NCBI GenBank assembly: GCA_038890615.1
Contig: JAWAFI010000001.1
Location: forward strand, 342,889 to 406,888
Reading direction: 5' to 3'
DNA length: 64,000 bases
From: Candidatus Anstonellales archaeon
GTDB lineage: Archaea > Micrarchaeota > Micrarchaeia > Anstonellales > J096
Positions 1,033 to 59,685 of this stretch are shown piece by piece; the stretch's first letter is position 1, and each line of letters opens with the position of its first letter. Below the pieces are notes generated by a model. It made no database searches, was not told the origin of the DNA, and worked only from the letters and a program-made list of their open reading frames with translations. A program made the position numbers and the translations under genes.

Positions 1033-1147
1033 GCCAAGGTAGCTCAGCCTGCGAAGAGCGCCAGACTCATAAGAATGAGTGTTGAGCATCCTGCTATGAA
1101 AGAACTGGGCAATCTGGAGGTCGGGGGTTCAAATCCCCCCCTTGGCA
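1033..1147 (+). tRNA. tRNA-Met(CAT) (elongator Met or Ile2-type) with a ~40-nt intron at the canonical 37/38 position
   Basis: Hand-folded cloverleaf. Acceptor GCCAAGG/CCTTGGC plus discriminator A. D stem GCTC/GAGC. Anticodon stem CCAGA/TCTGG with loop CTCATAA (CAT at 1068-1070). T arm GGGGG-TTCAAAT-CCCCC. Inserted ~1072-1112 segment begins GAATGAG, complementary to the anticodon region as in bulge-helix-bulge introns. G1:C72 argues against an initiator. Confidence 0.85.
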
Positions 1148-5099: not shown

Positions 5100-8000
5100 A
5101 TGCACACACGAGCTCTGTTTCTTGTTTTTCTTATTGCCCTTTCATTCTCAGCATATACTCATGACAGGCCGTGGAATGAGCCATATTATTCAGAATACTG
5201 CCCTTATGTAATTTCAATCCCCTATTTCCCAGAGATATGGGATGTGAAGGCAATGACACCCCCGCTTGATTCCCTAAACCTAAGCAGGGTTGCCTATGGG
5301 CCAGAGGTTTCAAAGGAAATAGAATCAGCGCGGAAGAGCTACGGGAATGCAAAGGAAGTTTATACTTGGAGCATAACATGCTCCCTATCTTGCTTTCCAG
5401 GCCTTCCTTCAAACATAGTGTTCATACTTGAAAAGGTGGTATTTGAGCGAAGCGCGCCTACCCAATCAGATTTCAGGGAGTTGCTAAACTATGGCATTGA
5501 CCTTATATTGCAGGCAATAAGCCCCTACCTTGCTTACCCATCATACTGGAAGGGCACTGCAAACAGCGCCCTTGATGCCCTTGACAAAAGCTTCCAGATA
5601 AATGACATGGAATGGGGCAGGGTTTACTCATTGTACAGGGAAATGGACTATATGGGGCTGTGCAATGCTGATTACCTTGGGCCTGCATCCGCTGAATGCA
5701 AGTATTCAAGGCAAATGCTTTCTGCTCTAGGGCATACAGACGCTGGCAGGGCTGGCTCTTATTCCCGCGCCTTCTCCCACTTGAACAAACTCACACAATC
5801 TTTCTACAGCCAGAAGCCAGACTTCTCTTCTTACTCATTGGCAATGGAGGAGCTGTGGGGCCCAAATGGAAGCATAATTTACGCCCGCGAAATCCAAAGC
5901 CAGTCCTCTTCAGCCATAGAATCAGCCAAGGATTCGTTAAAAAGCGAGGAATTTTCTGCCGAATCCCTTTCCTCCCAAGCCAAGTCATCTCTTAAGAAGC
6001 TAAAGGACGAGAAGGTTGGGCTCATAGCATCCCCAAGAGAGGTTTCAACAGTCCAGCAGCAAAGCTTCTTGGCTTCAATGCAGTCCTTTGAGGATGCTAT
6101 CCAGGCAGGAGATTCCCACATGTCATATGCCAAAAAGCTCCAATCCGAAAAGCCGCGCGGCTGGCTCGCAGAATCAATGCAGAACCTGCAGGAAGCAAAG
6201 CTCCTATATTCGCGGGTCGCATCAGAAAGCCCTGCTCTTCTTGCTGATGCCCGCTCTGCAGTTTCTTCAAAAAGGCAAGATGCCATGTCAGCAACAGCCG
6301 AGCTGTACAATATGCAGCTTTCTCTTAGGCAAAAGGAAAGGCTTGAAGCGCTCAACTCATCGCTTCTCTCATCTGAATCCCTGCCTCTTGGCGACCAATA
6401 CTTATTATATGAAAATATTATCAAGGAATGCAAAACAATAAATGAAGAGGCAAAGAGCGGCAGCATAGCTGTGCTTTCCTACAAACTCAGCTCGCTGCGA
6501 GAGCTTATGGAAAAGGCAAAGAAAGATGGCATTCCAATTCAAGAAGAGGAGCAGCGCCTTGCCCTGCTGGAGGAAATGGGCCCAACAGAAGATGGGATTC
6601 AAAGCATACAAGATTCAATAATCCTCAAGGCCTCAATAAAGTACGCAGAAGTGCCCTTCCTGCGCGAGCAGGTGCTTTCCTACCTTTCCACAGGGGCATT
6701 CCCAGACCTGCAGGCAAAAGTCAGGCAGAAAGAGCGTGGCTTAGTGTACGATAGCTTCTCTTTTGAGCTTGCCTTGGGGAGCCTTCATGCGCTTGAAGCG
6801 TTCTACATTGAAACTCTGGAGGAGATTGAAGGGCGAAAAGGAGAGATAGCGCTCTCTTCCCTAATATTGGAGCACAGCTCACGCCCAATAGTTGCAACCC
6901 TTGATTCCCCTTCTCTGGTTTCTGCCTACATAGTTGCCACGAACCCGACTGATTATTATGCTTCAGGGGCATCAGCCTCAATCCCATTCCCGCTCCAGGT
7001 AATCTCTTCTGACCTTCAAAATGTGAAAACATTTTCATACAAGAGTGGCACCCTAAACCTCTACTTTGATGTTGCGCCCCACGAATCAAAAACAATAAAG
7101 GTTTCTAAGGAAGCAGTGCTTGCTTCCACAATAAAAATAGAAACAATGGCAGAAGGCAAATATGGGAATGCATACGTTGATGAGGAGCGCTCAATATTCT
7201 TGGAGATAGACTGCGATGCACTGGAGATACCGCTAACTGATGAAGGAACTATAGACGGAGTCCCATTTTACAACTCTATCATGGCTAAGCCAATAAAGCA
7301 GGGAAAGCACACGCTCTCCTTTTCCTACGTTGTGCCAAATGCCTACAATGTGGAGTATACCAGTGTCTCTGCAACGCCCGTATCAGGAGGCACCTACTTC
7401 TCCTACACAATAACCCTAACCCCGCATATGGATTTGGATGTAGCTTACCTTCCAATAGAATACGGAGCCAATGCAGAGCCTATATCTTACCATGAGATTG
7501 AAACAGCCGCTTCCTACGTGGTGATAGCCAAAGTGCACAACGGGGAGCAGGCAAAGGTGCGAATCTTTTGGACAGCAGAAAATATAAGCAGCGAAATAGA
7601 TTCCCTTGAATCCCAGCTTAGCTTGCTGAACCTTACAGAATCCGAGCAGTTCCAATTTGACCAAATAGAGCTTATGGCAGACAGCGCTGAGAAGGCGAAG
7701 CTTCTCCTTTCGCTGAAAAAGGCAGTTGACAAGCGCCTTCTTGAAGAAGCGAAAAAGGCAGCCCAGCTTGAGCAGGAGCAGGAAGCCCTCTCCTCATTAA
7801 TAAGCCGCTACTCATCCGCACTTTCGCTTGCCAACTCGCTTGGCGAGAAGACCCTTTCCCCAACCATTTCTGCAGACCTTTCGGCGCTTATTGAAGCCAA
7901 CCGCACAGGGGCCAAGGTTGACTTCTCAATAGAAAAGAGAAGGATAAAGGAATTCAAAGAAGCCCTTTACAATTACTATTATTCGCTCAAGGAAAAATCC

Positions 8001-8609
8001 TATGGCTGCAATTCCTCTCTTTCAAGCGCTGATTCCTTATTCTCATCGCTGGAGCTTTCCCCATCACTTGAAACTGCTGTGCGCATAAGCTCAATCCTAG
8101 AGGCAACAGAGCGCGAGCTCTCTTCTTGCCAGCCACTGCCCCAACCAGAAACCCCTGCAGCTTCGCTTTTGAAAGAAGTGGAATCCCTTATATCGCGATA
8201 TAACAACGAGTTTGCTGATGCAAAGGAGCTGGGCCTAACCTCCCTACTTCCCTACACAACACAAGGGGTTGAATCAAGCTACCAAAAGGCAAAGAAAGCA
8301 GGGGAAGCAGAGCTACAGCGCTTCAAGGAGCTTCTTTCCTCGGTTATGGAACGGCTGGAGGAAAAGGCAGAGTCTTCTGCCTCTTCCCTTGAAAAATTGG
8401 GCATCGACTCATCAAGAGTAAGAGACCATATAAAAGAAGGCCGATACATAAAAGCAATAGCAGCTGCACAATCCCTCTTAAGCTCAAGGGGCAAGGACAA
8501 CAATCTTCTAATCATAGGTGCAGTTGCACTGGTTGTGCTTGGAGCCGTTGCTTTCCTGTACATGAAAGGGAGCAAGGAAAAAGAATTAAGGAGGCTAAAG
8601 AAAATCTGA
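5100..8609 (+). CDS. Large (1169 aa) cell-surface protein with N-terminal signal peptide and C-terminal TM anchor
   Basis: N-terminus MHTRALFLVFLIALSFSAYT; long Ser/Leu/Glu/Ala-rich, probably helical regions plus a central beta-like part. C-terminus NNLLIIGAVALVVLGAVAFLYMKGSKEKELRRLKKI (TM plus basic tail). No family recognised. Confidence 0.7.
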   Translation: MHTRALFLVFLIALSFSAYTHDRPWNEPYYSEYCPYVISIPYFPEIWDVKAMTPPLDSLNLSRVAYGPEVSKEIESARKSYGNAKEVYTWSITCSLSCFPGLPSNIVFILEKVVFERSAPTQSDFRELLNYGIDLILQAISPYLAYPSYWKGTANSALDALDKSFQINDMEWGRVYSLYREMDYMGLCNADYLGPASAECKYSRQMLSALGHTDAGRAGSYSRAFSHLNKLTQSFYSQKPDFSSYSLAMEELWGPNGSIIYAREIQSQSSSAIESAKDSLKSEEFSAESLSSQAKSSLKKLKDEKVGLIASPREVSTVQQQSFLASMQSFEDAIQAGDSHMSYAKKLQSEKPRGWLAESMQNLQEAKLLYSRVASESPALLADARSAVSSKRQDAMSATAELYNMQLSLRQKERLEALNSSLLSSESLPLGDQYLLYENIIKECKTINEEAKSGSIAVLSYKLSSLRELMEKAKKDGIPIQEEEQRLALLEEMGPTEDGIQSIQDSIILKASIKYAEVPFLREQVLSYLSTGAFPDLQAKVRQKERGLVYDSFSFELALGSLHALEAFYIETLEEIEGRKGEIALSSLILEHSSRPIVATLDSPSLVSAYIVATNPTDYYASGASASIPFPLQVISSDLQNVKTFSYKSGTLNLYFDVAPHESKTIKVSKEAVLASTIKIETMAEGKYGNAYVDEERSIFLEIDCDALEIPLTDEGTIDGVPFYNSIMAKPIKQGKHTLSFSYVVPNAYNVEYTSVSATPVSGGTYFSYTITLTPHMDLDVAYLPIEYGANAEPISYHEIETAASYVVIAKVHNGEQAKVRIFWTAENISSEIDSLESQLSLLNLTESEQFQFDQIELMADSAEKAKLLLSLKKAVDKRLLEEAKKAAQLEQEQEALSSLISRYSSALSLANSLGEKTLSPTISADLSALIEANRTGAKVDFSIEKRRIKEFKEALYNYYYSLKEKSYGCNSSLSSADSLFSSLELSPSLETAVRISSILEATERELSSCQPLPQPETPAASLLKEVESLISRYNNEFADAKELGLTSLLPYTTQGVESSYQKAKKAGEAELQRFKELLSSVMERLEEKAESSASSLEKLGIDSSRVRDHIKEGRYIKAIAAAQSLLSSRGKDNNLLIIGAVALVVLGAVAFLYMKGSKEKELRRLKKI

Positions 8610-16330: not shown

Positions 16331-16350
16331 AAAATGTATAAAAGCAACCT

Positions 16351-16362
16351 TTTTAATAAAAA
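16351..16362. promoter_or_regulatory. Shared TATA-like element of a divergent pair (mutase / 16380 ORF)
   Basis: TTTTAATAAAAA is centred 26 nt from ATG 16330 (-) and 24 nt from ATG 16380 (+). Confidence 0.45.
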
Positions 16363-16379
16363 GCGCAAAGGCACTTTTT

Positions 16380-41827: not shown

Positions 41828-42165
41828 AGGCACTTGGCAAGCTGATGAACTTGACAAAGGGTTCGCTTATTGCAAAGGAATGCTTCTTGGTTGAAACAAA
41901 TTTTGAGAGGGCAAGGGGTCTTATGTTCAGCCAAAAGAAATGCTTGGTTTTCAAATGCGATGGCTTCCTTCCAGTCCATTCGTTCTTTGTGTTCTTCCCA
42001 ATAACTTTGCTCTACATAAAAAAAAGGAGGGTTGTGGAGAAGCACCTCCTAATGCCTTTTACAGCGCATTACAAGAATAGCCACCCCGCAGAATACATGA
42101 TTGAAGTGCCTGGGGAATGCAACGCAAAAAAGGGCGATAGGGTTGCTTGGGTGGAAGATAGTTGA
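41824..42165 (+). CDS. DUF192-family protein
   Basis: ...RARGLMF... and later AEYMIEVPGE... fit the DUF192 (COG1430) pattern. GTG start overlapping the uppS stop; ATG 41845 is an alternative. Confidence 0.65.
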   Translation: MKALGKLMNLTKGSLIAKECFLVETNFERARGLMFSQKKCLVFKCDGFLPVHSFFVFFPITLLYIKKRRVVEKHLLMPFTAHYKNSHPAEYMIEVPGECNAKKGDRVAWVEDS

Positions 42166-45205: not shown

Positions 45206-45701
45206 TGAGAGGAAGGCAATCCATGTTGCAGCAGGAGCAGGCCTTATGTTCCTTACTTACGTGGCCCAGCCCTACCTTCTCCCTATCCTTTTCGTCCTAT
45301 TCATAGTGTTCCTTTTGGTTATGCACGAGTCAAAGGAAGGGGTTATGAAATTCCTTCTTCCAGGCCTTGCAGCCCCAACTGTAAACTATGTTGCAGGCCT
45401 TTGCATAGCCCTTCCCCTCCTTGAAATGAATGAGTTTAGGGCTGTGCTGGTTGCTCTTGCCCTTAGCGACAGCTTCGCTGCGCTTTTTGGGAAGCACCAC
45501 CCAATCAAGCGGATGAGCAACGGAAAATCGCTTGGAGGGGCTTTTGCATTCTTTGCTACCTGTCTCCTTACTTTTCTCTTCCTTCCATTTCCAACCTTCC
45601 TTATTTTTGCGCTTGCGCTCTCCTTGATAGAGCTGCTTACACCACTCGATGACAACCTAACAATCCCTGTTTCAGGGGCTATACTTCTTTACTTCCTTTA
45701 G
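45192..45701 (+). CDS. CTP-dependent polyprenol (dolichol) kinase-like / CTP_transf_1-family membrane protein, short form
   Basis: DSFAALFGKHHPIKRMSNGKSLGGAFAFF (D..A...G......KS.eG) and ELLTPLDDNLTIP motifs. GAGGTGGA Shine-Dalgarno upstream of ATG 45192. Confidence 0.65.
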   Translation: MIGLNERKAIHVAAGAGLMFLTYVAQPYLLPILFVLFIVFLLVMHESKEGVMKFLLPGLAAPTVNYVAGLCIALPLLEMNEFRAVLVALALSDSFAALFGKHHPIKRMSNGKSLGGAFAFFATCLLTFLFLPFPTFLIFALALSLIELLTPLDDNLTIPVSGAILLYFL

Positions 45702-48257
45702 CCTGCCTTTGACCACTTCTTTCCCCCCAAAGCTGCCGCCGCATTGATAAACAACTTCCTTTGCCCTAATTATCCCTTTTTCGCCAAAAGCCCCGAATTT
45801 CCCTTGCTTACCTATGAGCAAAGCCCCTTTTACCCCTTCCTTCCTCATCCTTTCAAGCAGGCGGTCTATAATTGAGTCCTCAACTATCTCCTCTACATAG
45901 TCCTTTCCCCTTGCCTTTTCCATTTCCTTTTCCACAATCGCCTCTTCAAGGCGCTCAACCTCCTTGCGGAGCTCCTTCCACTCATTAAAGAACCTTTCTG
46001 AGGTTTTTGGCAAGTCCTCCTTTGCTACCCTAAATACGCTAGCTGACTTTGAAAGATACTCCTCCTGCTCGTGCACATACTCAAGGGCTGCTTCCCCTAC
46101 CTTGTAAACAATCCTTTCTACCCCGTCCTGAACCCCCTCCCTCCTCACTATCTTAAATAAGCCAAATTCCCCTATGTTGTCATGCATCTGGTGGGTTCCG
46201 CCGCATGCCTCAACATCAACCCCTTCAATGATCACTATGCGGAGCTCCTTGCCAGGCACAGCCCCTCCTTGGTATATCCCAAACCCATACTTTTGCTCCG
46301 CTATGTTCCTTGGGATTATCTCAATGCTTATCTTCCTTTCCTCCCTTATCCACTTGTTTATCATCCTTTCCATTTCCTTGAGCTCATTGTCTTCTATTCT
46401 CTTATAGTGGGTGATGTCAAGATGGGCTATATTCTCTGATTTCTTTGCGCCTGCCTGGTAGCAGTGCCTTCCCAACACAGCCCTTGCTGCTGCGTTTATG
46501 AGGTGAGCTGCAGTGTGGTGCTTTGCAATCCTCTTTCTCCTCTCTATGTCAACGCTGCACCTAACCTTCATTCCTTCCCTAAACTTTGAAGCATCCCTTA
46601 CCTTATGGAATATAACTCCGTCCTTCCTGAAGACCTCAACAACCTCTTCTTCATTAATTTTTCCCTTGTCGCACGCCTGGCCCCCGCCTTCAGGGTAGAA
46701 AGCGCTCCTGTCAAGCACAATGTAGTTTCCATCAACCCTAAGCACAATGGCTTCGAAATCCCCTTCTTTGCCATAGTAGAGAGGCTCTGTTTTCTCTACC
46801 CCTTCTGTCTTTAGGTCAAAGCCTCTTTCTGCTATATCCTCCTTTTCGCTTATGAGCGAATAGAAATTCTCAGGCACCTTTATCTCCAGCCCTTTCTTTG
46901 CTGCTTCCTCTGCAACATATTCAGGCGGTATCCCATTGCTCTTGTAGAGCTCTACAAGCTTTTCAGTAGTTATGCTGCCCTTGGCTATCTCCTTCTCAAC
47001 CTTTCTCCCTGCCTTTTCTATTGTTTCCCTATACTTCCTTTTCTCCTCCTCAATTACCTTCCCTGTGCTTTCAACCCCTTCCTGCAGGTATGGGAACATT
47101 TCTTCCAAGAAATCAGCATGGAGCTCGCAAAGCTTTGCATAGTCCCATTCCCAGCCAAACTTCTGCTCAAACCCGAATGCCCTCCTCAATATCATGCGCA
47201 GGTTATAGCCGCCTCCTGAATTGCCTGGAAGCATGCCGTCTGTTGTTGTGAAGAGCACCGTTAGCACATGGTCTGCAGTTGCGTAAATCGCCTGAAGCAT
47301 CCTTAGCTCATTCTCATCAACCCCAATCTCCTCAACTACTTTCCTTTCAAGCTCTTTTGCGCCTTTTGTTTCTTCCATGTTTATCCTTCCCAAGCGCATG
47401 GCATATTCTCCCATTCTCTTTTCATCCACATCTACACCTGCCTGAGCCTTCATATATTCAACTGCCTTGGCCATAACGATCTCATAAGAGGTTGGGGTTC
47501 CATGAGTTATCCAGCTGAGCCTTGCCAGCCCTGCGCCCATGTCTATAACTTTTGTGTTGAGCTCCTTTCCGCTATCTTCGTACTGCATGAAAACGCAGTT
47601 CCCCAGCTCAAGCCCATCCTTAAAGTATTCAAGAGAAGGCCCGTAGTTGCCACCTCCTGCCCAAACATCCTCAACAAATGTAATGTCCTCCTGCCTTATT
47701 CCTAAGGCTCCAAGGTAGCCTATGTCGTGCTCTATTGCTTCTTCCTTCCAGTAGAAAACCCCTGTCTTTTCAGTGTTAAAGGCCAGCTGGCCCACCATAA
47801 CAAAGTTGGTATAATGCCTTCCTGTAACCCCAACATTGTCCACATCAGGGAATCTTATGCACGGCTGGGGGATTATAACAGGGTTTGCTATTGGCTCAAG
47901 CTCGCCCCTAACTGTGTAGGGCTGGAAGTCGTTTATGCTTGCTATTGTGAAGTAAAGGTCATCCCTCCACCTTGCCACTGTTGGGAAGGGCTTGACATAG
48001 CCATGCCCTGTTTTTAAAAAATAGTCCTTTATGACATTCCAAGTTTCAATATAGCCAAGCTTTTTGCCAACCTTGCCTATGAAAGAGTAGCCAACGCATT
48101 CAGAGTCCCCACAGTACTCTCTTTCTTCTATGCTCCAGAAGCTCTTCCCGCAGCCTTTGCACTTCTGCCTGCTGAACCCCCTTTCCCTTAGCACACGAAG
48201 CTCATAGTGCTTCTTCCATTCATTGCTGAACTCCCTACGGAGCTTTTCCTTGTCCAT
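45672..48257 (-). CDS. alaS: Alanine--tRNA ligase (archaeal type)
   Basis: Class II core, editing-domain HTAAHLINAA ... CGGTH motifs, C-terminal DHHA1-like region; 861 aa. 30-nt convergent overlap with 45192..45701. Confidence 0.95.
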   Translation of the reverse strand: MDKEKLRREFSNEWKKHYELRVLRERGFSRQKCKGCGKSFWSIEEREYCGDSECVGYSFIGKVGKKLGYIETWNVIKDYFLKTGHGYVKPFPTVARWRDDLYFTIASINDFQPYTVRGELEPIANPVIIPQPCIRFPDVDNVGVTGRHYTNFVMVGQLAFNTEKTGVFYWKEEAIEHDIGYLGALGIRQEDITFVEDVWAGGGNYGPSLEYFKDGLELGNCVFMQYEDSGKELNTKVIDMGAGLARLSWITHGTPTSYEIVMAKAVEYMKAQAGVDVDEKRMGEYAMRLGRINMEETKGAKELERKVVEEIGVDENELRMLQAIYATADHVLTVLFTTTDGMLPGNSGGGYNLRMILRRAFGFEQKFGWEWDYAKLCELHADFLEEMFPYLQEGVESTGKVIEEEKRKYRETIEKAGRKVEKEIAKGSITTEKLVELYKSNGIPPEYVAEEAAKKGLEIKVPENFYSLISEKEDIAERGFDLKTEGVEKTEPLYYGKEGDFEAIVLRVDGNYIVLDRSAFYPEGGGQACDKGKINEEEVVEVFRKDGVIFHKVRDASKFREGMKVRCSVDIERRKRIAKHHTAAHLINAAARAVLGRHCYQAGAKKSENIAHLDITHYKRIEDNELKEMERMINKWIREERKISIEIIPRNIAEQKYGFGIYQGGAVPGKELRIVIIEGVDVEACGGTHQMHDNIGEFGLFKIVRREGVQDGVERIVYKVGEAALEYVHEQEEYLSKSASVFRVAKEDLPKTSERFFNEWKELRKEVERLEEAIVEKEMEKARGKDYVEEIVEDSIIDRLLERMRKEGVKGALLIGKQGKFGAFGEKGIIRAKEVVYQCGGSFGGKEVVKGRLKEVKKYSP

Positions 48258-48267
48258 GTGCTTCTAT

Positions 48268-49953
48268 TCACGCTTTTCCTTGCTGGCTTTTTAATTCTTT
48301 TCTAAATTCATTAAGCTGGTTAAAAGCCAGTTGTTGTTGCCACGGATCCCCGAAATTGATGAGAAGAATAAGATTGAAAAGCACTGTTGGGTCTTTCTTC
48401 TTTATTGCCTCCTGGACCTTTTCCTTTATAATTTTTTCATCATTAGTAGTAATGCCAAGCATGGAGGCAGCAACGCTTACCCTTGAATTTACAACTTCCT
48501 TGTACTCGGCAAGCTCTTTGCTGTCTATGAAGTATGACCTCTCCTTAAGCATATTCACTGCTGAAAGATAGCCTACTGCTTTCCTTCCTTCGTCAGTAGT
48601 CGGATCCATCTCTGCAATCTGGTGCATATCTTTGGCGGTTTTTCCAATTACCTTGGGATCCCCATCTATTACATGCGACATTGCTAATGCGTAGCCTACA
48701 ATCTCAGGTGGTGCATTGCTTTTAGCAAGCTTTTCAGCAATAGCCTTTGCCTTGTGCCTCTGGCCGTTTGCCATTGCCTTATGTAAGCTATCAATTTTTT
48801 TGTAAAGGCTCTTGATTCCATCCTGAGTCATTCTGCCATTTTCATCAACTTCAAACTTATATCCTTTCCTTGGGTAGAACACCGTATACCATAATTCTGA
48901 AAGTTGATAGGTTGCGCTCTTCATTGAATTGTACACTGTCCTTGCGAGGTGAATAGGGAGCTTTAATATGAATTCATCGGCAAATGACTTCACATAGTCC
49001 CCATTACTTAAAATTTCTCCTTTGCTCTTTTTCTCTGCTATTCTTTCCTTGTAGGTGCCATATGCGTCAAGCATTGCCATAACCCCTACTATAATCGGAT
49101 CTGCAAAGCTTGCGCCTTGCTTTCCAATAGAAGCAAAACCGAGCCCAAGGGAAGCCCCTCCGCTGCCCCAATAAATAGGCCCGAGTGAAAGAGCAGGATT
49201 CTTTGAAATACTAAGCCCATAAATATCCCTCCTAAACTCAATTGCACTGTTCTTTGTTATTGCAAGACCTGCATAGGTACTACCGCTCTTCTCTGTTTGG
49301 CCTGATATCGAGGCGCTAAGAGAATGCTGTAGTTCTCCTTTGTCATTCACAACTGTTTGCACTCCTACGCCTCCATAAACAGTTTTAGTAGGCGTTAACC
49401 TTAAAATTTTCTTTGCAGCTCTTGAAAATCTAGCCCCTGCATAAAGGTGCTTTTCAGCTCCAGGTCTGTAAAACAGCTGCTCAAGCGCATTATTCATGAA
49501 TTTCTTGGAGCTCATACTATCCCCGGGCTCAAGCACATATCCTTTTTCGGTTTGGGTTATCTTGTCGCCAATCATCTCAGGCCGGAGAACCCCTGTTTCA
49601 ATCAGCACATGAATGCAGATATTCATTGCTCCCTTCCCTGCCTCACCGTTGAAATAGAGCTTTCTTCCATTCTCTATCCTTGTTGCTGCTTCTTCAAGTA
49701 TTTTTATAACTTCTGATATTCTTCCGCCTGTGCTACTGTCTGTGATGGCAATTAACTCTGCGAGGCTTATTTTACTCCTATTCTTGAATGCTTTCTCAAC
49801 TTCTTCCTGCACCTTGTCCAAATTAGTGTAGCCAACCCTGTCTGCGAAAAGCCTTGTTGATTCAATAGCTTGCTCCTTTGTAAGCATTATTTTGCTTGCA
49901 TTTGTCCTGCCTTCAACAACCTTATCAAGATTTTGGATCTGTTTTTCTACCAT
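48268..49953 (-). CDS. Hypothetical protein (561 aa), downstream partner of the giant protein
   Basis: 9 nt downstream of 49963..53829 on the same strand. Helical ends and a central G/S-rich beta-like region (GPIYWGSGGASLGLGFASIGKQGASFADPIIVGVMAML). No signal peptide or known motif. Confidence 0.6.
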   Translation of the reverse strand: MVEKQIQNLDKVVEGRTNASKIMLTKEQAIESTRLFADRVGYTNLDKVQEEVEKAFKNRSKISLAELIAITDSSTGGRISEVIKILEEAATRIENGRKLYFNGEAGKGAMNICIHVLIETGVLRPEMIGDKITQTEKGYVLEPGDSMSSKKFMNNALEQLFYRPGAEKHLYAGARFSRAAKKILRLTPTKTVYGGVGVQTVVNDKGELQHSLSASISGQTEKSGSTYAGLAITKNSAIEFRRDIYGLSISKNPALSLGPIYWGSGGASLGLGFASIGKQGASFADPIIVGVMAMLDAYGTYKERIAEKKSKGEILSNGDYVKSFADEFILKLPIHLARTVYNSMKSATYQLSELWYTVFYPRKGYKFEVDENGRMTQDGIKSLYKKIDSLHKAMANGQRHKAKAIAEKLAKSNAPPEIVGYALAMSHVIDGDPKVIGKTAKDMHQIAEMDPTTDEGRKAVGYLSAVNMLKERSYFIDSKELAEYKEVVNSRVSVAASMLGITTNDEKIIKEKVQEAIKKKDPTVLFNLILLINFGDPWQQQLAFNQLNEFRKELKSQQGKA

Positions 49954-49962
49954 CTAATCACC

Positions 49963-52900
49963 TCAAAATATCCAATACCAGTAGCCTCCAATCCCTATTG
50001 CCCAGCTTTGCCCTACCTTTTCGAACTTTATGTCAAGCACTCCACTGCTGTCAGAGCCTTTTTTCATATCAACTGCCACCCCCATCACGAGCTCCTTTAT
50101 AGGCCCTCCTTCGAAATTCGTCTTGCCCCCTCCAAGATAAAACCTTATGTCAGTAAGCGCAAGCTTTCCTTCATTATTTACCCGCAAGCTGTATATGCCT
50201 CCATGGAAGGTTAGGAGCTCGTCAGTTACATCCTTTGCCTGCGCATTGGCGTCAATGAGGACCATGCCCTGTTTTGTGAACCCAACATACCATTTGAGCC
50301 CATTCTTTGTCCTTACCTCAATCCCTACCTCACCAAGAGTTATTTTTGCGTCCTTGAAATATTCTGCTATCTTTTCAGGGGTTATGCTCTGGGCCATATT
50401 TCCCTCCGTATAGCCCATCACCAGCGTGATATTTCCGCTCTTTATCCCAGCGTAGAGGCTATCCGTGCTAATTACGCCTTCAGAGCCGCTTTCCTTTATC
50501 TTTTTCACTACCACCCCTAGAACTGCGCTTGAGATAGGCACAACAACCTGCGCCTCTTGCACCTCAGTCATTTTTTCTGCTTGTGTGTACTCAAAAAGCC
50601 CCATTGATGCCGCAACACCTCCATCTATCTTTATGAAAGCGTTTACCCCATAATTCCCCTCTTTCCCGTAAAGGGCTGCAAGCTCAAGCTTTCCAAGCCC
50701 CTTCTTGTTCACAGCATAAAGAGCGCCGTAGTAGGTTTGCGATAAAGCAAAGAGCGACAATGCTGATCTGCCTCTCTTCAAGTACCTTTCAATATTGCTC
50801 TTTATTCTGCCAAGCTCTGCGTGAAGCTTTCCCTTGTCTCCTTCTGTAGAATTTATTTCATCCAGCTTTTCCTGGTATCTTTTCAGTTCTTCTCTTATAT
50901 TCACGTTTATGTATGCCAGCTCAAGAAGGGCAAAGCTGAACTCCTGCGCATAATTGTAGTAACTCAACTGGACAGTCTGCTTTGTATTGTTGCCTTTTCC
51001 ATATGTTCCCTGGAGTATGATGCTGTCCATTCCAAGCAGCGTTTCTTTTGCAAATGTGCCAAGTATAAGACCGTCCCATTCCTCCTCACTAAGATGACCT
51101 CCAAAAGTCCCACCCACCCCTGTTCCTTTTCCTGAATATCTCCTAAGGTTGAATATGCTTGCATCAACGGAAATATTGCCTTCTTTCATTCCATAGCTAG
51201 CAACATAGTAGTTGTTCTCTTCCTTGCTTTCCCCTGCGATTCCAAGCCACATGAAATCCTTTTTCCTGTCTCTGCCTACGAAATAGCCAGCCATCAACCC
51301 ATAGTCTAGGCTTTTTTCCCCTCCTTTTATTACAGGTGGCCCGTATACTTCAACATAGCCGTATTTGTTTCCTTCGCTCATGAGCAACCCAACAGCGCTT
51401 GCGTTGTCTGCAGCAGCAGCGAATGCAGCAAAGTTGTTTGTGCTCATGCTCAAAAGGCCGCCAACTAATCTATCTTCGCTTGCCATTATTTTCATTTCAG
51501 CAGAGTTTCCTGACATCGCTATAAGCAATCTGTCAAGGCCCTCTTTAGGTGCGTCGAAATGCACCCTATACCAATAGCCAGTTTCAGTGTCATGGAAGTA
51601 GCCTCTTACACTGTATCCTTTCTCTGTTTTATCAAAGAAAAGCAGTGTGTTTCCCTTAAGCAGGCCTTCTTTGACCATTAGGTCAAGCGCTGTGTGGAGC
51701 TCTTCCTCCTCTTCACCTACAACCGCACTTACTCTGCCGTCAAATGTCCAGTTCTCCCCATTGGATATGTCATTAAGGATAGAGTCCAGCCTATATCTAT
51801 GGAAGTCAGTGGTTATAGTAGTATCTAACCTCCCTATCCCTATAAAGCTCGCTGTTATTGTTCCATACCCTACGTCTCTTTCACCCCTATCATAATACCT
51901 TCCACTCAATACCCCCGTCGTTTCAAGAAACTTCGTTTTATCAAAAAATTTTGGGCGCTCCATCTCTACTATAAATTTGCTTAGCGAAGAAGAGAGAATC
52001 TTGAAAGGAAGGACAGGAACATACCTTTTTGTGCTGAGTATGCTCCTTGTTTCAGCGTCGAAAGGCATTCCGAAATTCGGCCTTTCATAAGGCCCTCGCA
52101 GTTCTTCCACTGCTTGTTCCCCTCTTGTGAGCATAGGGAACAATGCATTTGCTCCAGGATAGAGCGAAAATGCGGAGGGATAGCCTCGTTGGGAAATATA
52201 GAAGTTCCTTACCCACTGCTCAGTAGGACCTAGCAGGCGCATACTTTCATCTCTTATTTGGGCATTAGACCCATACCCATATATGGTGCTTGCTGCTGTG
52301 CTTAACCCCCTGTCTTGATACATTTCATTAATTAGAATTTTCATCATTTCCTGCAGGGAGAACGAAACTACCTCTTTCTTTCTTTCAAAATGCTCCACAA
52401 CCTTGCTCTCAGCTTCCCAAGTGTAGTAGCTTATTATTTTTGACTCAGCCACCGTCACAGCATTAAGCACGTCTATGAAAACCCCCAAGTCCTCAATCTG
52501 GCCTAAAAGGTGGGGGTAAAAAGAGTTTATTAGTTCCAGCTTTGTTGAATCAAGCTTTACTGCCCCGAAGTGTTCGGCGAACAGCCTTAACCACTCAACT
52601 TCATCCATCTTTGAGTCCAGAACATATTCATAACCTTTCTTTTCCTCATTCCATTTGCCCATAACTCCTACATAATTGCTTTCCCTTATAACTGGCACAA
52701 GATTGCTGTAGAACGAGTACTGTTGGAGCAGGTCAAGGTTTTTCAGGAGCGAAACATGCTCTAGCTGCTTCTCCTTGTTTTCCTTGGTGAATGTGCCATA
52801 CTGTGCTGCAAACCCCCCCCTCCACCCTTGGAACCCTTTATCATTTTCTATCTTTTGCAATGCTTTCAGCAATACTTCATAGGCGTCTTTGCCATCCACT

Positions 52901-53829
52901 CCGAACCATTTCTTTAGGCTTTCTTTTGGCCCATATTTTTTCTCAATAAGGTAGTTCACTCCCTCCCTTCCGTTCTTTTTTTCTATTTCTTTTAGAAGCT
53001 GTCTTAAATTAGCTACTGACTGGGCTGCATCAAAAGTTGAGGCATCTGCAGCCATTGCACTACTAAGGTTAGCATATCCTTCATTAAGCTGCATTACCTT
53101 TTGCACAACATCCTCTTCTTCCCCTATAACCTTTGCTAATTTCTCCCTGTTCCTTCTTACAAAATCCTTAAGCCGTGCTGCTCCTTCAAGCTGAGAGGGC
53201 CATTTTCCTTCTTTGATGGCCTCAATCAGCAACTTATTTACATATTTCTTTACCTGTGGATCCTTGCTCATTTCACTGTAGAGCTTTTCTGCAACTAGTC
53301 TTCCTTGTGTATCGACATCCCCCACCCTTCCCAAGAGTGCTAGAGATTGGATGAAATATTTTAGCACCATGCTTTTCTGGCTTTCTGTAAGCTCTTTTGG
53401 GTTGAAATATTGTGTTTCCAATTCACTAGGCTCTTCTTTCTTCTTATCTTCCTTTTTCGTTTTGTCTTCTTTCTCTCTCCTTTCTTCAGGTTTAGGTTCT
53501 ACCTTTTTAGGGACTTCTTCCCCCTTTTTCACTTTCTCCTCTCCTTTTGGTTGTGGTTCCTTCCCTGCCTTCCTCCTACCATAAACGATCTCCTCCATCT
53601 TCTCAACGATATGCTCTACGAGCTGTTTTTTAGTAAAATTTGGATTGTTTAGGTTTTTTATAAGGAATTCATCAATAAACTTATCTATCTTTTCCATCTT
53701 CCTTCTGCTTAGATTAAGGTATTCATTCCTTGGGTTTCTTCTGTTATATTTATCTATTGCCTCTAATCTGATTTCTATCATTTTTTTCCAATCATTGTTT
53801 GATATTTTTTCTTGAGCAGACACTGGCAT
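49963..53829 (-). CDS. Giant hypothetical protein (1288 aa): shared N-terminal module, K/E linker, helical region, beta-rich C-terminal half ending ...GIGGYWYWIF
   Basis: Uninterrupted 3.9-kb ORF. GGTGGA 5 nt upstream of ATG 53829. No signal peptide/TM and no recognisable catalytic motif. Confidence 0.7.
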   Translation of the reverse strand: MPVSAQEKISNNDWKKMIEIRLEAIDKYNRRNPRNEYLNLSRRKMEKIDKFIDEFLIKNLNNPNFTKKQLVEHIVEKMEEIVYGRRKAGKEPQPKGEEKVKKGEEVPKKVEPKPEERREKEDKTKKEDKKKEEPSELETQYFNPKELTESQKSMVLKYFIQSLALLGRVGDVDTQGRLVAEKLYSEMSKDPQVKKYVNKLLIEAIKEGKWPSQLEGAARLKDFVRRNREKLAKVIGEEEDVVQKVMQLNEGYANLSSAMAADASTFDAAQSVANLRQLLKEIEKKNGREGVNYLIEKKYGPKESLKKWFGVDGKDAYEVLLKALQKIENDKGFQGWRGGFAAQYGTFTKENKEKQLEHVSLLKNLDLLQQYSFYSNLVPVIRESNYVGVMGKWNEEKKGYEYVLDSKMDEVEWLRLFAEHFGAVKLDSTKLELINSFYPHLLGQIEDLGVFIDVLNAVTVAESKIISYYTWEAESKVVEHFERKKEVVSFSLQEMMKILINEMYQDRGLSTAASTIYGYGSNAQIRDESMRLLGPTEQWVRNFYISQRGYPSAFSLYPGANALFPMLTRGEQAVEELRGPYERPNFGMPFDAETRSILSTKRYVPVLPFKILSSSLSKFIVEMERPKFFDKTKFLETTGVLSGRYYDRGERDVGYGTITASFIGIGRLDTTITTDFHRYRLDSILNDISNGENWTFDGRVSAVVGEEEEELHTALDLMVKEGLLKGNTLLFFDKTEKGYSVRGYFHDTETGYWYRVHFDAPKEGLDRLLIAMSGNSAEMKIMASEDRLVGGLLSMSTNNFAAFAAAADNASAVGLLMSEGNKYGYVEVYGPPVIKGGEKSLDYGLMAGYFVGRDRKKDFMWLGIAGESKEENNYYVASYGMKEGNISVDASIFNLRRYSGKGTGVGGTFGGHLSEEEWDGLILGTFAKETLLGMDSIILQGTYGKGNNTKQTVQLSYYNYAQEFSFALLELAYINVNIREELKRYQEKLDEINSTEGDKGKLHAELGRIKSNIERYLKRGRSALSLFALSQTYYGALYAVNKKGLGKLELAALYGKEGNYGVNAFIKIDGGVAASMGLFEYTQAEKMTEVQEAQVVVPISSAVLGVVVKKIKESGSEGVISTDSLYAGIKSGNITLVMGYTEGNMAQSITPEKIAEYFKDAKITLGEVGIEVRTKNGLKWYVGFTKQGMVLIDANAQAKDVTDELLTFHGGIYSLRVNNEGKLALTDIRFYLGGGKTNFEGGPIKELVMGVAVDMKKGSDSSGVLDIKFEKVGQSWAIGIGGYWYWIF
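53657..53815. repeat. Direct repeat copy A (159 bp, 1 mismatch to copy B)
   Basis: TTTATAAGGAATTCATCAATAAACTTATC...CAATCATTGTTTGATATTTTTTCTTGA is identical to 57196..57354 except 53702 C versus 57241 T. It codes the N-terminal module of the giant protein. Confidence 0.95.
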
Positions 53830-53860
53830 CTATCCACCTATAAAAATAAGGGCTGGGCAT

Positions 53861-53870
53861 ATATTTAAAC
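53861..53870. promoter_or_regulatory. TATA-like box in the 61-nt divergent region between the giant gene and 53891 ORF
   Basis: ATATTTAAAC is ~25 nt upstream of ATG 53891 (+, leaderless pattern) and ~36 nt upstream of ATG 53829 (-, which additionally has GGTGGA). Confidence 0.4.
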
Positions 53871-53890
53871 CTAATCTTTCTTTCCCTATT

Positions 53891-54652
53891 ATGGAAAAGC
53901 AGGAGAAACTAATTACAGAGCTTATGGCCGCCGAGAGAAAATATCTCGAGCTCCACTTCATTACCCTCTATAAGCTCACAACAGGAGTAGAAGCAGAGCA
54001 AGAGCTGCAGGAAAAGGCAGAGCTTGAGAGAAGGATAGCAGAGCTCCATTCAAAGCTTTCAGGCTTAAAGCTCTTCTTCCCATTCCAAAACAACATAGAG
54101 GCGCTTACTGCAAGGATTTCTGCCCATACAGAGCAGGAGGTTGTAAAGGCGCTGAGGGAGAAGAGCGGGGAGCTCTACGAGCTGATAAAAAGCAGAGGTG
54201 TTTTGATAAGGCAGAACTTTGACAGGCAGGAAGATATTGCCCGTTTGATCTGCTTTGTCAATAGGCTTGGTGGTTCAGAGGAGATAATAAAGATGGTGAA
54301 GGAAGGAAAGTGGGACAGGGAGATGCAGGTAAAGGATGCTGCTGAGCTTGCCAAGCACCTTAACAGGGCAGGCATAACCTGCAAGGCTCAAGGGGATAAG
54401 GTAGTGCCTGGGGAGATGGAAGAGAAGGAGCGCCTTATCCAAGTTGATGAAAGGAAAATTTGGCTTCCAGCGCAGAAGGCAGAAGAGCTTGAGAGGCTCC
54501 TAAAGGAACTCAACGAGGTAAACCTCAAGATACAGCTGAAGAACGCAGAGAGGCAGATAAAGGTGTTCAGCGAGCAGGAGGAGAAAGATTTCACTGAGCT
54601 CCAGATTAAGTATTTAGAGCTGATAAAGAAAAAGAAGGAGATTATAGGTTAG
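53891..54652 (+). CDS. Hypothetical coiled-coil protein (253 aa)
   Basis: E/K/L-rich heptad-like sequence at both ends with a small central globular part; correctly spaced TATA box; no family recognised. Confidence 0.55.
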   Translation: MEKQEKLITELMAAERKYLELHFITLYKLTTGVEAEQELQEKAELERRIAELHSKLSGLKLFFPFQNNIEALTARISAHTEQEVVKALREKSGELYELIKSRGVLIRQNFDRQEDIARLICFVNRLGGSEEIIKMVKEGKWDREMQVKDAAELAKHLNRAGITCKAQGDKVVPGEMEEKERLIQVDERKIWLPAQKAEELERLLKELNEVNLKIQLKNAERQIKVFSEQEEKDFTELQIKYLELIKKKKEIIG

Positions 54653-56375: not shown

Positions 56376-57572
56376 TTACTTGTTTTGTTTTTCTCTCATC
56401 TTTTCTTCTTCAGCGGCTATTTTCCTCTGTTTCATTAGCAAGTCTATTTCGTAAGGATAAAAAACCTTAGAGATGCCCGACGTCATGAACGTTATAGCGT
56501 CTTCAAGAGGACATTTTGGGTCTTTTATACATGCCTTGGCCAACTCAATAAGCATAAGTTCTTCTGATTCTGTGAGTTGTCCTCTATATTTTTCATTTAT
56601 CTCTTTTATATTGTAAGAAAAAATAACATAGTCTCCTTGTTCTAGCATCCTTTTAAGCTTTTTCCTAAATTCCTCCAATTGATTATTTATTTCCTGAAAA
56701 CCTATATCAGTATTTGCTCCTGCGAGCATTAGATCAACGATCTTTTCAACTGGGCAACCAACCACAATGCAATTATGAAGTTCTTGCCCTAATTCATTAG
56801 CTCTTTTCTCTCCAATCTCTGCTCTTCTCGTTTTATTTATCATCAATAGCATATCTCTATCACTTGGATTAAGATTTTTTTCTTTCATCCCTCTTATTAC
56901 CCTCTCCCTTAAATCCTTTTCTATCCCTATTTTCTCGATGCTTTTTGAGGCTTTTTCCATATTTGGTGGGGCAGGTTTTTTCTCTTGGACATTGCTCTTT
57001 GGTGCTTCTTCTGATGGAAGTTTTGTTGGTGGAGGAGAGGCATTAGTTTTTTCTACCACAGTAGCATTGGCTTTAGTTCTCTGCCCATCAACTGATGTTA
57101 CAGGGCTGTTATAAGTTTTCTTTACTCCAGCAATCTCTTCCATTTTTTTTACTATGCTTTCTACGAGCTGCTCTTTACTTAGCTTGTTTATATTATTTAT
57201 AAGGAATTCATCAATAAACTTATCTATCTTTTCCATCTTCTTTCTGCTTAGATTAAGGTATTCATTCCTTGGGTTTCTTCTGTTATATTTATCTATTGCC
57301 TCTAATCTGATTTCTATCATTTTTTTCCAATCATTGTTTGATATTTTTTCTTGATGTTCTTTCGTCTCTTTTGCCCCACCACGGTTGCTATAGCTAGTGG
57401 TAGCTGATGTTCCGCAAGCAATGCTAAAAGAGAGAAACATGGCTAGAGCTGCTCCTGCTAATTTTTTTAGCAACCATTTCTTTGTTGGTTTCTCTTCTGC
57501 CAACGGCTCTAAACACTTAAACTTTGTTTTATAGGTCTCTTTTCCTTTTTCGGTAATTGTTTTGCTTTTCAT
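56376..57572 (-). CDS. Membrane-anchored/lipoprotein-like hypothetical protein carrying the module shared with the giant protein
   Basis: Basic N-terminus, hydrophobic helix LAGAALAMFLSFSIAC, then EKISNNDWKKMIEIRLEAIDKYNRRNPRNEYLNLSRKKMEKIDKFIDEFLI (repeat copy B), P/S/T/K linker and an unassigned helical C-terminal domain. Confidence 0.6.
   Translation of the reverse strand: MKSKTITEKGKETYKTKFKCLEPLAEEKPTKKWLLKKLAGAALAMFLSFSIACGTSATTSYSNRGGAKETKEHQEKISNNDWKKMIEIRLEAIDKYNRRNPRNEYLNLSRKKMEKIDKFIDEFLINNINKLSKEQLVESIVKKMEEIAGVKKTYNSPVTSVDGQRTKANATVVEKTNASPPPTKLPSEEAPKSNVQEKKPAPPNMEKASKSIEKIGIEKDLRERVIRGMKEKNLNPSDRDMLLMINKTRRAEIGEKRANELGQELHNCIVVGCPVEKIVDLMLAGANTDIGFQEINNQLEEFRKKLKRMLEQGDYVIFSYNIKEINEKYRGQLTESEELMLIELAKACIKDPKCPLEDAITFMTSGISKVFYPYEIDLLMKQRKIAAEEEKMREKQNK
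57196..57354. repeat. Direct repeat copy B (159 bp)
   Basis: See copy A (53657..53815). Offset is 3539 bp in the same orientation. Confidence 0.95.
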
Positions 57573-58452: not shown

Positions 58453-59685
58453 ATGGATACAAAGAAGTTCCTTGCCTTTGCTGGTTTGGCATTAGTAGTT
58501 ACAGCTCTGCTTTACTTTTTCGCCCCAAGGGACAAGGGTATTTACCTTGATGCAATAATAAAGTCAATGGAGCAGGAATCGCTCGCAAGACCTGTTTCTA
58601 TAAGTGGTTATGAGAACAGCACATCAATGGAAAGGGCATACCAGATAAATTATGATGGGGCAAATGCCATGGTGAAGGCAATATACGCTTTCTACACAAA
58701 GAGCTTGTATGTGATGAATGGCACTGAATACGTTTGCCTTTCTTACCAAGGAAGCTACGCTTGCGACAAGCAGACAAGCAATGACCTAAAATCCATCATC
58801 GTTACAAAGGACCAGGCAGAAAGGATAGCAAAAGAAATGAAATTCCTATGGGCAAACAAGGCTCTTTCAATAAAGGGTATTGAAGAAACCTCTGAGTGCA
58901 CAAAAATTGAGTATGTTATTGATTACACCAAGCTCACTACAGCTCAGCTTAGGGAAATCGGGCTGAGCCCAACTGATTCTGTTGTTTACATTGGCTCATT
59001 TAGGCATGTCTTATGCTATTCAAAGGATTACAAGCCTGTATATAGGGAGCTTTACTATGCCTTGAATGGCAACCAGTACTCTTATAAGAGAGGGTATAAG
59101 TTTGAGGAAGGGAGCACAGTTTTCAGCCCTGCTGCTGATGCCCAGAAGTACGCAGAGGTAAAGGCATCAATAAACAACGTGCTTGTCCAGCTTGAAAAAT
59201 GCCTATCCTCCCCAAGCGCAATCCAGTGCATAGAAGGAGTTGCTTACCATGAGGACAATGAGCAGATATGTGGCATCTTAGAGGACCAAGAGCGCTGCAA
59301 GCTTAGGATTTTGGTTGGAAAGGGCAAACCTTCGCTTTGCGAAGGGCTCAGCGCTCTAAAAGACGACTGCTATGGTCAATACGCACTACAGCTTGGCAAC
59401 ACCTCACTGTGCGAAAAAATCTCCTCAGCCCAGAAAAAGCAGGAATGCATATCAATGATCAGCAGCCGCTGCTACTCTGATTCTGATTGCGCCATAGGGG
59501 GTTGCTCAGGCGAGCTATGCGGCCTCAAAGGCGAGGAGATGGTAAGCACCTGCATATACAAGCCAGAGTACGATTGCCTTAAATATAGCTCATGCACATG
59601 CATAAGCGGAAAGTGCCAGTGGAAGCGCACAGGTGAATACTTAGATTGCCTCTCAAGCCTCGGTAAGGCTGAGGCAGAAGGCTAG
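58453..59685 (+). CDS. Membrane-anchored/secreted protein with Cys-rich C-terminal region
   Basis: N-terminal TM FLAFAGLALVVTALLYFFAP. The last ~170 aa contain >20 Cys, ending CYSDSDCAIGGCSGELCGLKGEEMVSTCIYKPEYDCLKYSSCTCISGKCQWK. AGAGGGGA Shine-Dalgarno and an ATATTTAAAAA box lie upstream. Confidence 0.65.
   Translation: MDTKKFLAFAGLALVVTALLYFFAPRDKGIYLDAIIKSMEQESLARPVSISGYENSTSMERAYQINYDGANAMVKAIYAFYTKSLYVMNGTEYVCLSYQGSYACDKQTSNDLKSIIVTKDQAERIAKEMKFLWANKALSIKGIEETSECTKIEYVIDYTKLTTAQLREIGLSPTDSVVYIGSFRHVLCYSKDYKPVYRELYYALNGNQYSYKRGYKFEEGSTVFSPAADAQKYAEVKASINNVLVQLEKCLSSPSAIQCIEGVAYHEDNEQICGILEDQERCKLRILVGKGKPSLCEGLSALKDDCYGQYALQLGNTSLCEKISSAQKKQECISMISSRCYSDSDCAIGGCSGELCGLKGEEMVSTCIYKPEYDCLKYSSCTCISGKCQWKRTGEYLDCLSSLGKAEAEG

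Follow-up and report, generated by a model that had tools for sequence, protein, structure and literature searches.

An orphan two-gene operon upstream of alaS in a Micrarchaeota archaeon encodes a giant protein with a conserved aromatic C-terminus

Bacterial outer-membrane protein (OMP) barrels carry a beta-signal that is read by BamA/Omp85. Tail anchors are helices of ~20 residues, and membrane-targeting sequences of the MinD/FtsA type are amphipathic helices. In DPANN archaea, host attachment and the uptake of lipids and metabolites are largely unexplained at the molecular level; the candidates are large lineage-specific proteins, which usually have signal peptides, transmembrane (TM) segments and recognisable adhesion or enzymatic domains. 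For lipids and metabolites, the only Micrarchaeon in culture is dependent on its host, and its contact sites undergo remodelling (PMC8975820), and the biology of DPANN host interaction has been treated elsewhere (PMC11291902; PMC11329633). Here we describe two adjoining genes of Candidatus Anstonellales archaeon (assembly GCA_038890615.1, contig JAWAFI010000001.1, positions 342,889 to 406,888; this stretch of 64,000 nucleotides is referred to as the window, and coordinates are given as positions in it). Standing directly upstream of alaS, they encode a giant protein of 1288 amino acids (aa) and a partner of 561 aa.

By sequence, the pair falls outside every described family and represents a two-member orphan family. 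Neither protein, searched whole and by domain, had a significant match in Pfam, NCBIfam, PHROGs or PADLOC; the Pfam scan covered all OMP, porin and autotransporter models, and the NCBIfam scan all curated models of C-terminal sorting signals. The best sub-threshold hits were library noise (Ribosomal_S3_C at E 0.01-0.08 and a WhiA helix-turn-helix at E 0.02). Single-sequence and profile searches of PDB sequences yielded nothing below E 0.2, and no PHROG, phage-record, IMG/VR or PADLOC match was found. The first-pass annotation, made from the letters of the sequence, had recognised no known family here, and the empty searches of Pfam, NCBIfam, PHROGs, PADLOC and PDB sequences bear it out. The AlphaFold2 predicted local distance difference test (pLDDT) was 34.5 for aa 636-1288 of the giant and 32.2 for aa 1043-1288 (two-sequence alignment). 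In Foldseek with the second of these models, the best match had E 0.055 and a TM-score of ~0.1, which is noise.

Among 5.8 billion clustered proteins (word-indexed search), the giant had one relative, P0002, a protein of 1242 aa that is 57% identical over the full length and is encoded on a 5-kb contig from sequencing run SRR20820566 (locus L001). When 1.84 billion representative proteins were searched exhaustively with a HMMER profile, P0002 remained the sole match at E <= 0.001. Back-translated scans with the giant alignment gave no match in GTDB genomes, JGI metagenomes or IMG/VR, and tblastn gave none in phage records. In 80 Micrarchaeota alaS loci, tblastn found no relative of the giant or the partner; the large open reading frames (ORFs) upstream of alaS there are unrelated (threonyl-tRNA synthetase-like, S-layer-like, and another family). 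No partner relatives were found in the protein databases, and a partial partner orthologue of 45% identity lies directly downstream of P0002. The gene order of L001 is that of the window: a 253-aa gene, the giant, the partner. The alaS gene, ~55% identical to Micrarchaeota alaS (best matches about 50-57%), assigns the window to a divergent member of the Micrarchaeota (DPANN), and the giant has one relative only; the locus is, as had been claimed, an orphan two-gene operon in an archaeal genome.

Both genes are real, native and under purifying selection. Their ORFs are far longer than expected by chance, and their distances in relative synonymous codon usage (RSCU) are 0.107 (giant) and 0.142, with a window range of 0.09-0.24. 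For the giant, purifying selection is indicated because residues are kept (59% identical in P0002) while half of the conserved ones differ in codon.

The feature that drew most of our attention is the end of the giant. Its C-terminus is GIGGYWYWIF and that of P0002 is GIGGNWYWIF (shared ...AIGIGGxWYWIF), and the last 8 residues are 88% identical, compared with 59% overall. The terminal Phe with aromatics at -3 and -5, picked out by the first-pass annotation, is therefore present, and checking the homologues shows the motif kept in the only one there is. The tail consists of ~13-14 hydrophobic residues rich in Gly, Trp and Tyr, has no basic end, and holds in its middle a GG pair that could form a turn. 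With ~13 residues and no basic end, it is unlikely to serve as a sortase-type signal or to anchor the protein as a TM segment, and it has the appearance of a short hydrophobic hairpin or interfacial anchor. Trp and Tyr favour membrane interfaces (Wimley-White interfacial scale).

A scan of JGI metagenomes for DNA coding for GGxWYWIF followed by a stop gave five matches, roughly the number estimated for random DNA. Two of the five were out of context, and the other three (L083, L085 and L086) are true ends of one family. These proteins are ~537 aa long and beta-rich, have a classical Sec signal peptide (MKRKYCLFYAIITMMLLLLASLSVHG...) and end in ...GDLKIIGNI[DN]LGIMLGGTWYWIF, with a hydrophobic stretch ahead of GGxWYWIF. 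Their contigs encode GatD, which is archaeal, as well as DUF763, dCTP deaminase and TruA. Using BLASTP and hhalign, we found nothing in common between the giant and the L085 family beyond the tail, and no NCBIfam model matched the C-terminal 60 aa of either the giant or the L085 protein at E<=10. From background frequencies, the chance of such a tail is ~6e-11 per protein end, corresponding to ~0.06 independent families in ~1e9 ends; the estimate is rough, and aromatic-rich C-terminal strands would raise the chance figure. The recurrence of the tail in an unrelated archaeal family is suggestive of an anchoring motif.

The rest of the giant is modular. Hydrophobic periodicity is predominantly helix-like over aa 1-500 and strand-like over aa 1000-1288, and K+E make up 37% of aa 1-137, which agrees with the K/E/P linker and the helical stretch followed by a beta-rich C-terminal part that had been described earlier. 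The best-conserved 40-aa blocks relative to P0002 are aa 361-400 and aa 681-720 (85% identity each); identity is 72-85% over the central core, aa 641-760 (e.g. TTITTDFHRYRLDSILNDISNGENW), and 40-72% over the C-terminal domain. In the AlphaFold2 fragment, residues ~341-380 (about aa 976-1015 of the giant) have pLDDT 55-76, with helices at 325-359 and 364-407. No internal repeats were found in the giant, and no sequence similarity between the giant and the partner. Cysteines are rare. The giant has none in 1288 residues, for which the window mean of 0.95% gives a Poisson probability of ~5e-6, and P0002 and the partner have 2/1242 and 1/561. This depletion is uninformative on location, because the cytoplasmic thermosome is also Cys-poor (0.18%) and the secreted proteins of the same genome are not.

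The partner is basic (net charge +14) and contains one Cys. Its central aa 186-300 have 15.7% Gly and 7.8% K+E, compared to ~20% K+E in the flanking parts, so the G/S-rich stretch noted earlier is real; in composition it resembles the beta domain of the giant.

The ~80-aa N-terminal module that the first-pass annotation had found in common with the gene at 56376..57572 is confirmed. Amino acids 6-82 of the giant and 74-148 of this 398-aa paralogue are 84% identical over 77 aa, and their DNA is 90% identical over 230 nt, the first ~170 nt being nearly identical. The same region of the giant is only ~30% identical to its orthologue P0002. Since the module is near-identical to the paralogue and so divergent from P0002, the comparison suggests a recent duplication or gene conversion within the genome. 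The paralogue has a Lys-rich N-terminus followed by a hydrophobic segment at aa 38-56 (...LSFSIAC), and its topology would be N-in, C-out, possibly as a lipoprotein. The paralogue is also the compositional outlier of the window (GC 0.354, GC at third codon positions 0.316, RSCU distance 0.242) and carries two Cys pairs, CIVVGCP and CIKDPKCP. The N-terminus MP[VG]SAQ (aa 1-6) is invariant in both giants, while the next ~80 residues are only ~30% identical; it falls outside the module common to the giant and the paralogue.

By hydropathy, the giant and the partner have no signal peptide and no TM helix, whereas two surface proteins of the window, 5100..8609 and 58453..59685, have clear signal peptides. 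Kyte-Doolittle values over 19-residue windows (KD19) peak at 1.65 in the giant and 1.24 in the partner, and at 2.3-2.8 in the surface proteins. The first 70 aa of the giant have a maximum KD15 of -0.10; at its C-terminus no 19-residue window reaches KD 1.2, and the five peaks above 1.2 lie at aa 448-1108. Local tblastn showed similarity to the paralogue that seemed to continue in frame upstream of the giant ATG, through a signal-peptide-like MKWSSRYFLSAAISSVISFSCFSII...GG*MPVSAQ. This candidate for a cryptic signal peptide was rejected. A TAG interrupts the reading, which corresponds to the antisense strand of the divergent gene's K/E-rich beginning. In L001 the frame is not kept, and the frame upstream of the giant there contains many stops; DNA identity to the paralogue begins only at codon 5-6 of the giant. 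Being antisense, TAG-broken and out of frame in L001, the upstream reading is not a lost signal peptide, and the earlier statement that signal peptide and TM helix are absent holds.

To judge the suspected likeness to OMPs, we used Escherichia coli K-12 controls: five barrels (OmpF, the OmpA, FhuA and BamA barrels, and the ElfC usher), 12 soluble beta-rich proteins or domains (fimbrial subunits and chaperones, LpxA/LpxD, DegP, PqiB, POTRA, the OmpA C-domain) and 17 other proteins. A caveat to the comparison is that these come from one bacterium, and the archaeal proteome here is K/E/I-rich. The density of alternating amphipathic 9-mers per 100 aa is 1.7-4.1 in barrels, up to 3.8 in soluble pilins and 3.66 in aa 1043-1288 of the giant; the pattern, on which the first-pass annotation had relied, is not diagnostic of a barrel, because barrels and soluble pilins overlap completely. 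Composition, on the other hand, splits the control classes cleanly. The barrels have 13.3-16.6% aromatics and 15.8-18.3% L+I+V+M (LIVM), that is, at least 13.3% and at most 18.3%, while all others have at most 10.9% and at least 21%. Aromatics and LIVM amount to 9.8% and 27.6% in aa 1043-1288 of the giant (with 14.2% Gly), 12.2% and 22.7% in its aa 780-960, and 7.8% and 24.3% in aa 186-300 of the partner. The beta-rich segments thus fall outside the barrel range, with the soluble class.

Counted from the end, the odd positions of the tail (F1, W3, W5, G7, I9) fit a beta-signal. Its even positions I2, Y4 and Y6 are hydrophobic too, so that both faces of the six terminal residues are hydrophobic, whereas control OMPs end in ...VYQF, ...TFRF or ...GKTW and have a polar residue at -2 (Q in OmpF, R in FhuA, T in BamA). 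The C-termini of soluble pilins also alternate aromatics (ElfA ...HINYY, YcbU ...DLVYQ, YcbV ...VLHYD), so that such alternation is not specific to OMPs. No Omp85/BAM is known from archaea. The cultured Micrarchaeon, as seen by cryo-electron tomography, has a single membrane plus an S-layer (PMC8975820). We therefore consider it very improbable that the giant is an OMP-type transmembrane beta-barrel with a BAM-like beta-signal, sitting in an outer membrane, either the archaeon's own or that of the host. The final Phe, the hydrophobic or aromatic side chains at positions 1, 3, 5 and 9 from the end, the Gly/Tyr-rich strand-like segments, the lack of Cys and the retention of the tail motif in P0002 would fit such a barrel; the missing signal peptide, the lack of any Pfam OMP or porin match even by domain, the composition of aa 1043-1288, the hydrophobic residues at -2, -4 and -6 and the single membrane do not. 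The specific likeness to bacterial OMPs put forward by the first-pass annotation is thus not supported, given the composition, the absence of a Sec signal, a tail that is hydrophobic on both faces and the single membrane of the cultured Micrarchaeon. Of the three outcomes named there as counting against its hypothesis (an ordinary soluble fold, an unconserved tail, membership of a characterised family), none was found: the motif is conserved and no family was matched, and the models of the fold reached only pLDDT 32-34.

As the best-supported, though tentative, reading, possible rather than probable, we propose that the two proteins make up a lineage-restricted, native two-protein scaffold, associated with the membrane or envelope through the aromatic C-terminal element, and not an OMP barrel. 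The giant would be a modular scaffold with an N-terminal docking module, present also on the membrane-anchored, lipoprotein-like paralogue, followed by a disordered K/E/P spacer, a conserved core (aa ~360-400 and 600-760), the helical hairpin and the Gly-rich beta domain. Its last 13-14 residues (WAIGI-GG-YWYWIF) would form a short beta-hairpin or interfacial anchor, buried in the lipid interface or in a partner protein. The partner, with a G/S-rich beta segment between basic helical domains, would co-assemble with the giant. Given the lack of a signal peptide, the cytoplasmic face of the membrane would be the default location; the proteins may also leave the cell by a non-Sec route. We infer the membrane association, the co-assembly and the side of the membrane alike.

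Several observations are in line with the scaffold. The genes are real, constrained and native, with an operon layout and synteny that are kept in the sole relative. By this comparison the tail ranks among the best-conserved blocks. The same GGxWYWIF-COOH on an unrelated family that bears signal peptides hints at an anchoring role, the N-terminal module is seen otherwise only behind the TM or lipobox-like segment of the paralogue, and the central segment of the partner is, to judge by composition, similar to the beta domain of the giant. Other observations weigh against the scaffold. The predicted structural model, at pLDDT 32-34, is unusable. As there are only two sequences, conservation of the tail is weak evidence. 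The match of the tail in the secreted family could be coincidental, because aromatic C-terminal strands are common in beta-rich proteins, as the pilin controls show, and no further such tail was found among 1,360 ORFs of the window and 1.4 Mb of Micrarchaeota loci. Canonical signal peptides and C-terminal TM anchors are found on surface proteins of this genome (5100..8609), but not on the giant. Finally, the tail could be a buried core strand or an oligomer-interface strand of a soluble protein.

This last point leads to a soluble cytoplasmic complex, structural or enzymatic, in which the central core would be the functional part, the Gly-rich beta domain an ordinary sandwich or solenoid, and the tail buried or oligomerising. 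We consider such a complex somewhat unlikely. In its favour are the absence of signal peptide and TM helix, beta segments whose composition matches the soluble controls, conservation that peaks centrally (aa 361-400 and 681-720) and not in the C-terminal domain, the operon with alaS and native codon usage. Still, there is no catalytic motif and no family match at any threshold, six consecutive hydrophobic or aromatic residues at the extreme C-terminus are unusual for a soluble protein, and the N-terminal module is held in common with a membrane-anchored protein. An exported host-contact or pore-forming complex, the broader hypothesis of the first-pass annotation, is rather unlikely in our view; it would leave the cell by a non-Sec route and, at the contact site, bind or insert into the host membrane with its G/S-rich amphipathic hairpins and aromatic tail. 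The source is a DPANN Micrarchaeon, and the host dependence of the cultured Micrarchaeon and its remodelling of contact sites count in favour of such a complex. The only analogues of the two ends of the giant, in the 398-aa paralogue and the L085 family, belong to proteins that bear export signals. Amphipathic strands are as dense in aa 1043-1288 as in true barrels, but this density does not tell barrels from soluble sandwiches. The low Cys content, which might be taken as a further sign of export, is uninformative given the thermosome. Neither protein has a signal peptide, though the surface proteins of the genome have one, the operon has no link to any known archaeal secretion system, and the pair seems to be tightly co-transcribed with the housekeeping gene alaS.

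A domesticated or resident set of mobile-element or viral structural genes (capsid, tail or tape-measure-like) is very unlikely. Large orphan genes without relatives are typical of archaeal viruses, and the near-identical DNA of the duplicated module suggests recent recombination. But the proteins have no PHROG, phage-record or IMG/VR match, codon usage is native, the genes stand between alaS and the thermosome gene while P0002 has the same flanking gene, no integrase-like ORF was found in 44-60 kb, and the tRNA genes are at least 13 kb from the operon. What probability the scaffold and its four rivals leave goes to explanations outside these five. A bolder version of the story seems improbable to us: a new Sec-independent, membrane-active DPANN machine in which the giant, together with the partner, docks onto or inserts into a membrane at the host contact site by its Trp/Tyr-rich C-terminal hairpin and G/S-rich amphipathic hairpins, with GGxWYWIF-COOH as a new archaeal envelope or membrane anchor motif used on unrelated proteins (the giant family and that of L083, L085 and L086).

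Should the pair be membrane-active, symbiont-host contact, a process whose candidates are large lineage-specific proteins like the giant, would gain a new protein family; should GGxWYWIF-COOH be a recurrent anchor, the C-terminal targeting signals of archaea would gain a new member. Caution is needed, as orphan genes are very common in DPANN genomes and this uncharacterised family has two sequences. What makes the locus interesting is chiefly the aromatic tail, conserved and recurring, and the relevance of proteins of this type to DPANN-host contact.

The features of the locus are listed in Table 1. The coordinates of the two minus-strand genes, 9 nt apart, with alaS 10 nt on, agree exactly between the first-pass annotation and the ORF listing. 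The giant-partner junction includes GGTGA before the partner ATG, and the partner-alaS junction has no T-run able to terminate transcription. Because of these short junctions, the second without a T-run, the giant, the partner and alaS are probably a single co-transcribed unit. The Shine-Dalgarno-like GGTGGA is closer to the giant ATG than the 5 nt given earlier, whereas a TATA-type box had been placed correctly at ~35 nt upstream. This box, TTTAAATAT, also precedes the ATG of the divergent gene by ~26 nt; as the single box in a divergent intergenic region of 61 nt (53830-53890), it may serve both the giant and the 253-aa gene. The box and the giant ATG are kept in L001, the sole homologous locus, as is the whole region 53830-53890, and with both signals present the start of the giant is genuine, as the first-pass annotation had judged. 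From TTTAAATAT, the giant transcript is predicted to have a short leader that contains the Shine-Dalgarno sequence, and that of the 253-aa gene to be nearly leaderless.

Table 1. Features of the giant-partner locus (positions in the window) and of the protein family sharing its C-terminal motif (positions in the respective loci)
Feature	Position	Strand	Basis and remarks
Giant gene	49963..53829	-	1288 aa; ORF listing; no Cys, signal peptide or TM helix
N-terminal module, aa 6-82 of giant	53584..53814	-	In common with 56376..57572
K/E/P-rich low-complexity linker, aa 86-137	53419..53574	-	Translation; many indels relative to P0002
Mainly helical region, aa 138-640	51910..53418	-	Hydrophobic-moment profile; no Pfam match when scanned by domain
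Mixed beta region, aa 641-960	50950..51909	-	Strands in low-confidence AlphaFold2 model
Predicted long helical hairpin, aa 961-1042	50704..50949	-	Sole stretch with AlphaFold2 pLDDT >70
Gly-rich beta C-terminal domain, aa 1043-1288	49966..50703	-	Strand-type periodicity; AlphaFold2 pLDDT 32
C-terminal tail SWAIGIGGYWYWIF	49966..50007	-	Hydrophobic/aromatic on both faces; kept in P0002 as SYAIGIGGNWYWIF
Partner gene	48268..49953	-	561 aa; ORF listing; GGTGA ahead of ATG
Partner central G/S-rich strand-like segment, aa 186-300	49054..49398	-	Composition
alaS	45672..48257	-	10 nt downstream of partner, same strand
Shine-Dalgarno-like GGTGGA	53833..53838	-	3 nt ahead of ATG 53829
TATA-like box TTTAAATAT	53861..53869	.	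Centre ~36 nt upstream of giant ATG
Divergent gene, 253 aa, coiled-coil-like	53891..54652	+	Adjoins giant; position kept in L001
398-aa paralogue	56376..57572	-	Module at aa 74-148 behind TM or lipoprotein-type segment
GGxWYWIF family member, L083	497-2107	-	True protein end
GGxWYWIF family member, L085	2329-3942	-	True protein end
GGxWYWIF family member, L086	8535-9566	-	True protein end; 343 aa, open frame 384 codons, possibly N-terminally incomplete

The divergent 253-aa protein has an 80% identical copy upstream of P0002 in L001 and a 31% identical relative in the Micrarchaeota locus L068, at 15870-16688 (-). Because the L068 relative has no giant adjoining it, the 253-aa gene appears to be older and more widespread than the operon; we treat it as context, its membership in the giant-partner system not being demonstrated. 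On the other side, beyond alaS and on the opposite strand, 42101-44801 (+) ends ~900 nt from the alaS 3' end (44801 vs 45672), with two small ORFs between; it encodes a T2SSE-family ATPase and, overlapping it, a 457-aa polytopic membrane protein without a Pfam match; the two resemble an assembly pair of the type IV pilus or archaellum-like kind.

Among the surface proteins, 5100-8609 (+) encodes 1169 aa that begin with a signal peptide and end in a TM anchor plus basic tail, has no Pfam or NCBIfam match, and is probably the S-layer or major surface protein of the archaeon. The product of 58453-59685 (+) has 22 Cys (5.4%), a hydrophobic segment near its N-terminus and a match to the eight-cysteine-cluster domain model TIGR04289 (E 1e-17); it also hits TIGR04292, a CGP-CTERM-anchored Cys-rich protein, at E 4e-21, below the model cutoff. 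In locus L010, from a Micrarchaeota genome, a 953-aa protein directly upstream of alaS (6330-9191, +) has a signal-like N-terminus and an S_layer_C match (E 1.8e-6), and no BLAST relationship to the giant. At 1033-1147 (+) of the window, Rfam finds a 115-nt tRNA that ARAGORN did not call, probably an intron-containing archaeal tRNA.

Compared with described systems, the giant resembles bacterial OMP barrels in its terminal Phe, the residues at positions 1, 3, 5 and 9, the Gly/Tyr-rich strands and the lack of Cys. It differs from them by having no signal peptide, no kinship to an OMP family, a soluble-type composition and hydrophobic even positions in the tail. With the chaperone-usher pilins, which are soluble beta sandwiches, it shares dense amphipathic strands and an aromatic C-terminal strand; the pilins, however, are small, Sec-exported and have a Cys pair, and show no homology to the giant. 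Similar to the large lineage-specific proteins considered for DPANN host interaction, the giant is large, fast-evolving and lineage-restricted and comes from a reduced symbiont genome, while lacking a signal peptide, a TM segment or a recognisable domain. Like tail-anchored proteins and those of the MinD/FtsA type, it has no signal peptide and bears its element at the extreme C-terminus, although this element, with 13-14 residues, is Gly/Trp-rich and of strand or hairpin character, where a tail anchor would have a TM helix of ~18-22 hydrophobic residues. The archaeal C-terminal signals (PGF-, PEF-, CGP- and GlyGly-CTERM) combine a signature motif, a ~20-residue TM helix and a basic cluster with an N-terminal signal peptide, in contrast to the ~13 residues of the giant, which have no basic end and no NCBIfam signature; as there is no signal peptide, the giant cannot take the Sec-then-sortase route. 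Nevertheless, like PGF-CTERM with its archaeosortase, CGP-CTERM and the TM anchor of 5100..8609, the giant has a conserved hydrophobic element at its C-terminus, and this element also recurs on the unrelated Sec-secreted family of L083, L085 and L086.

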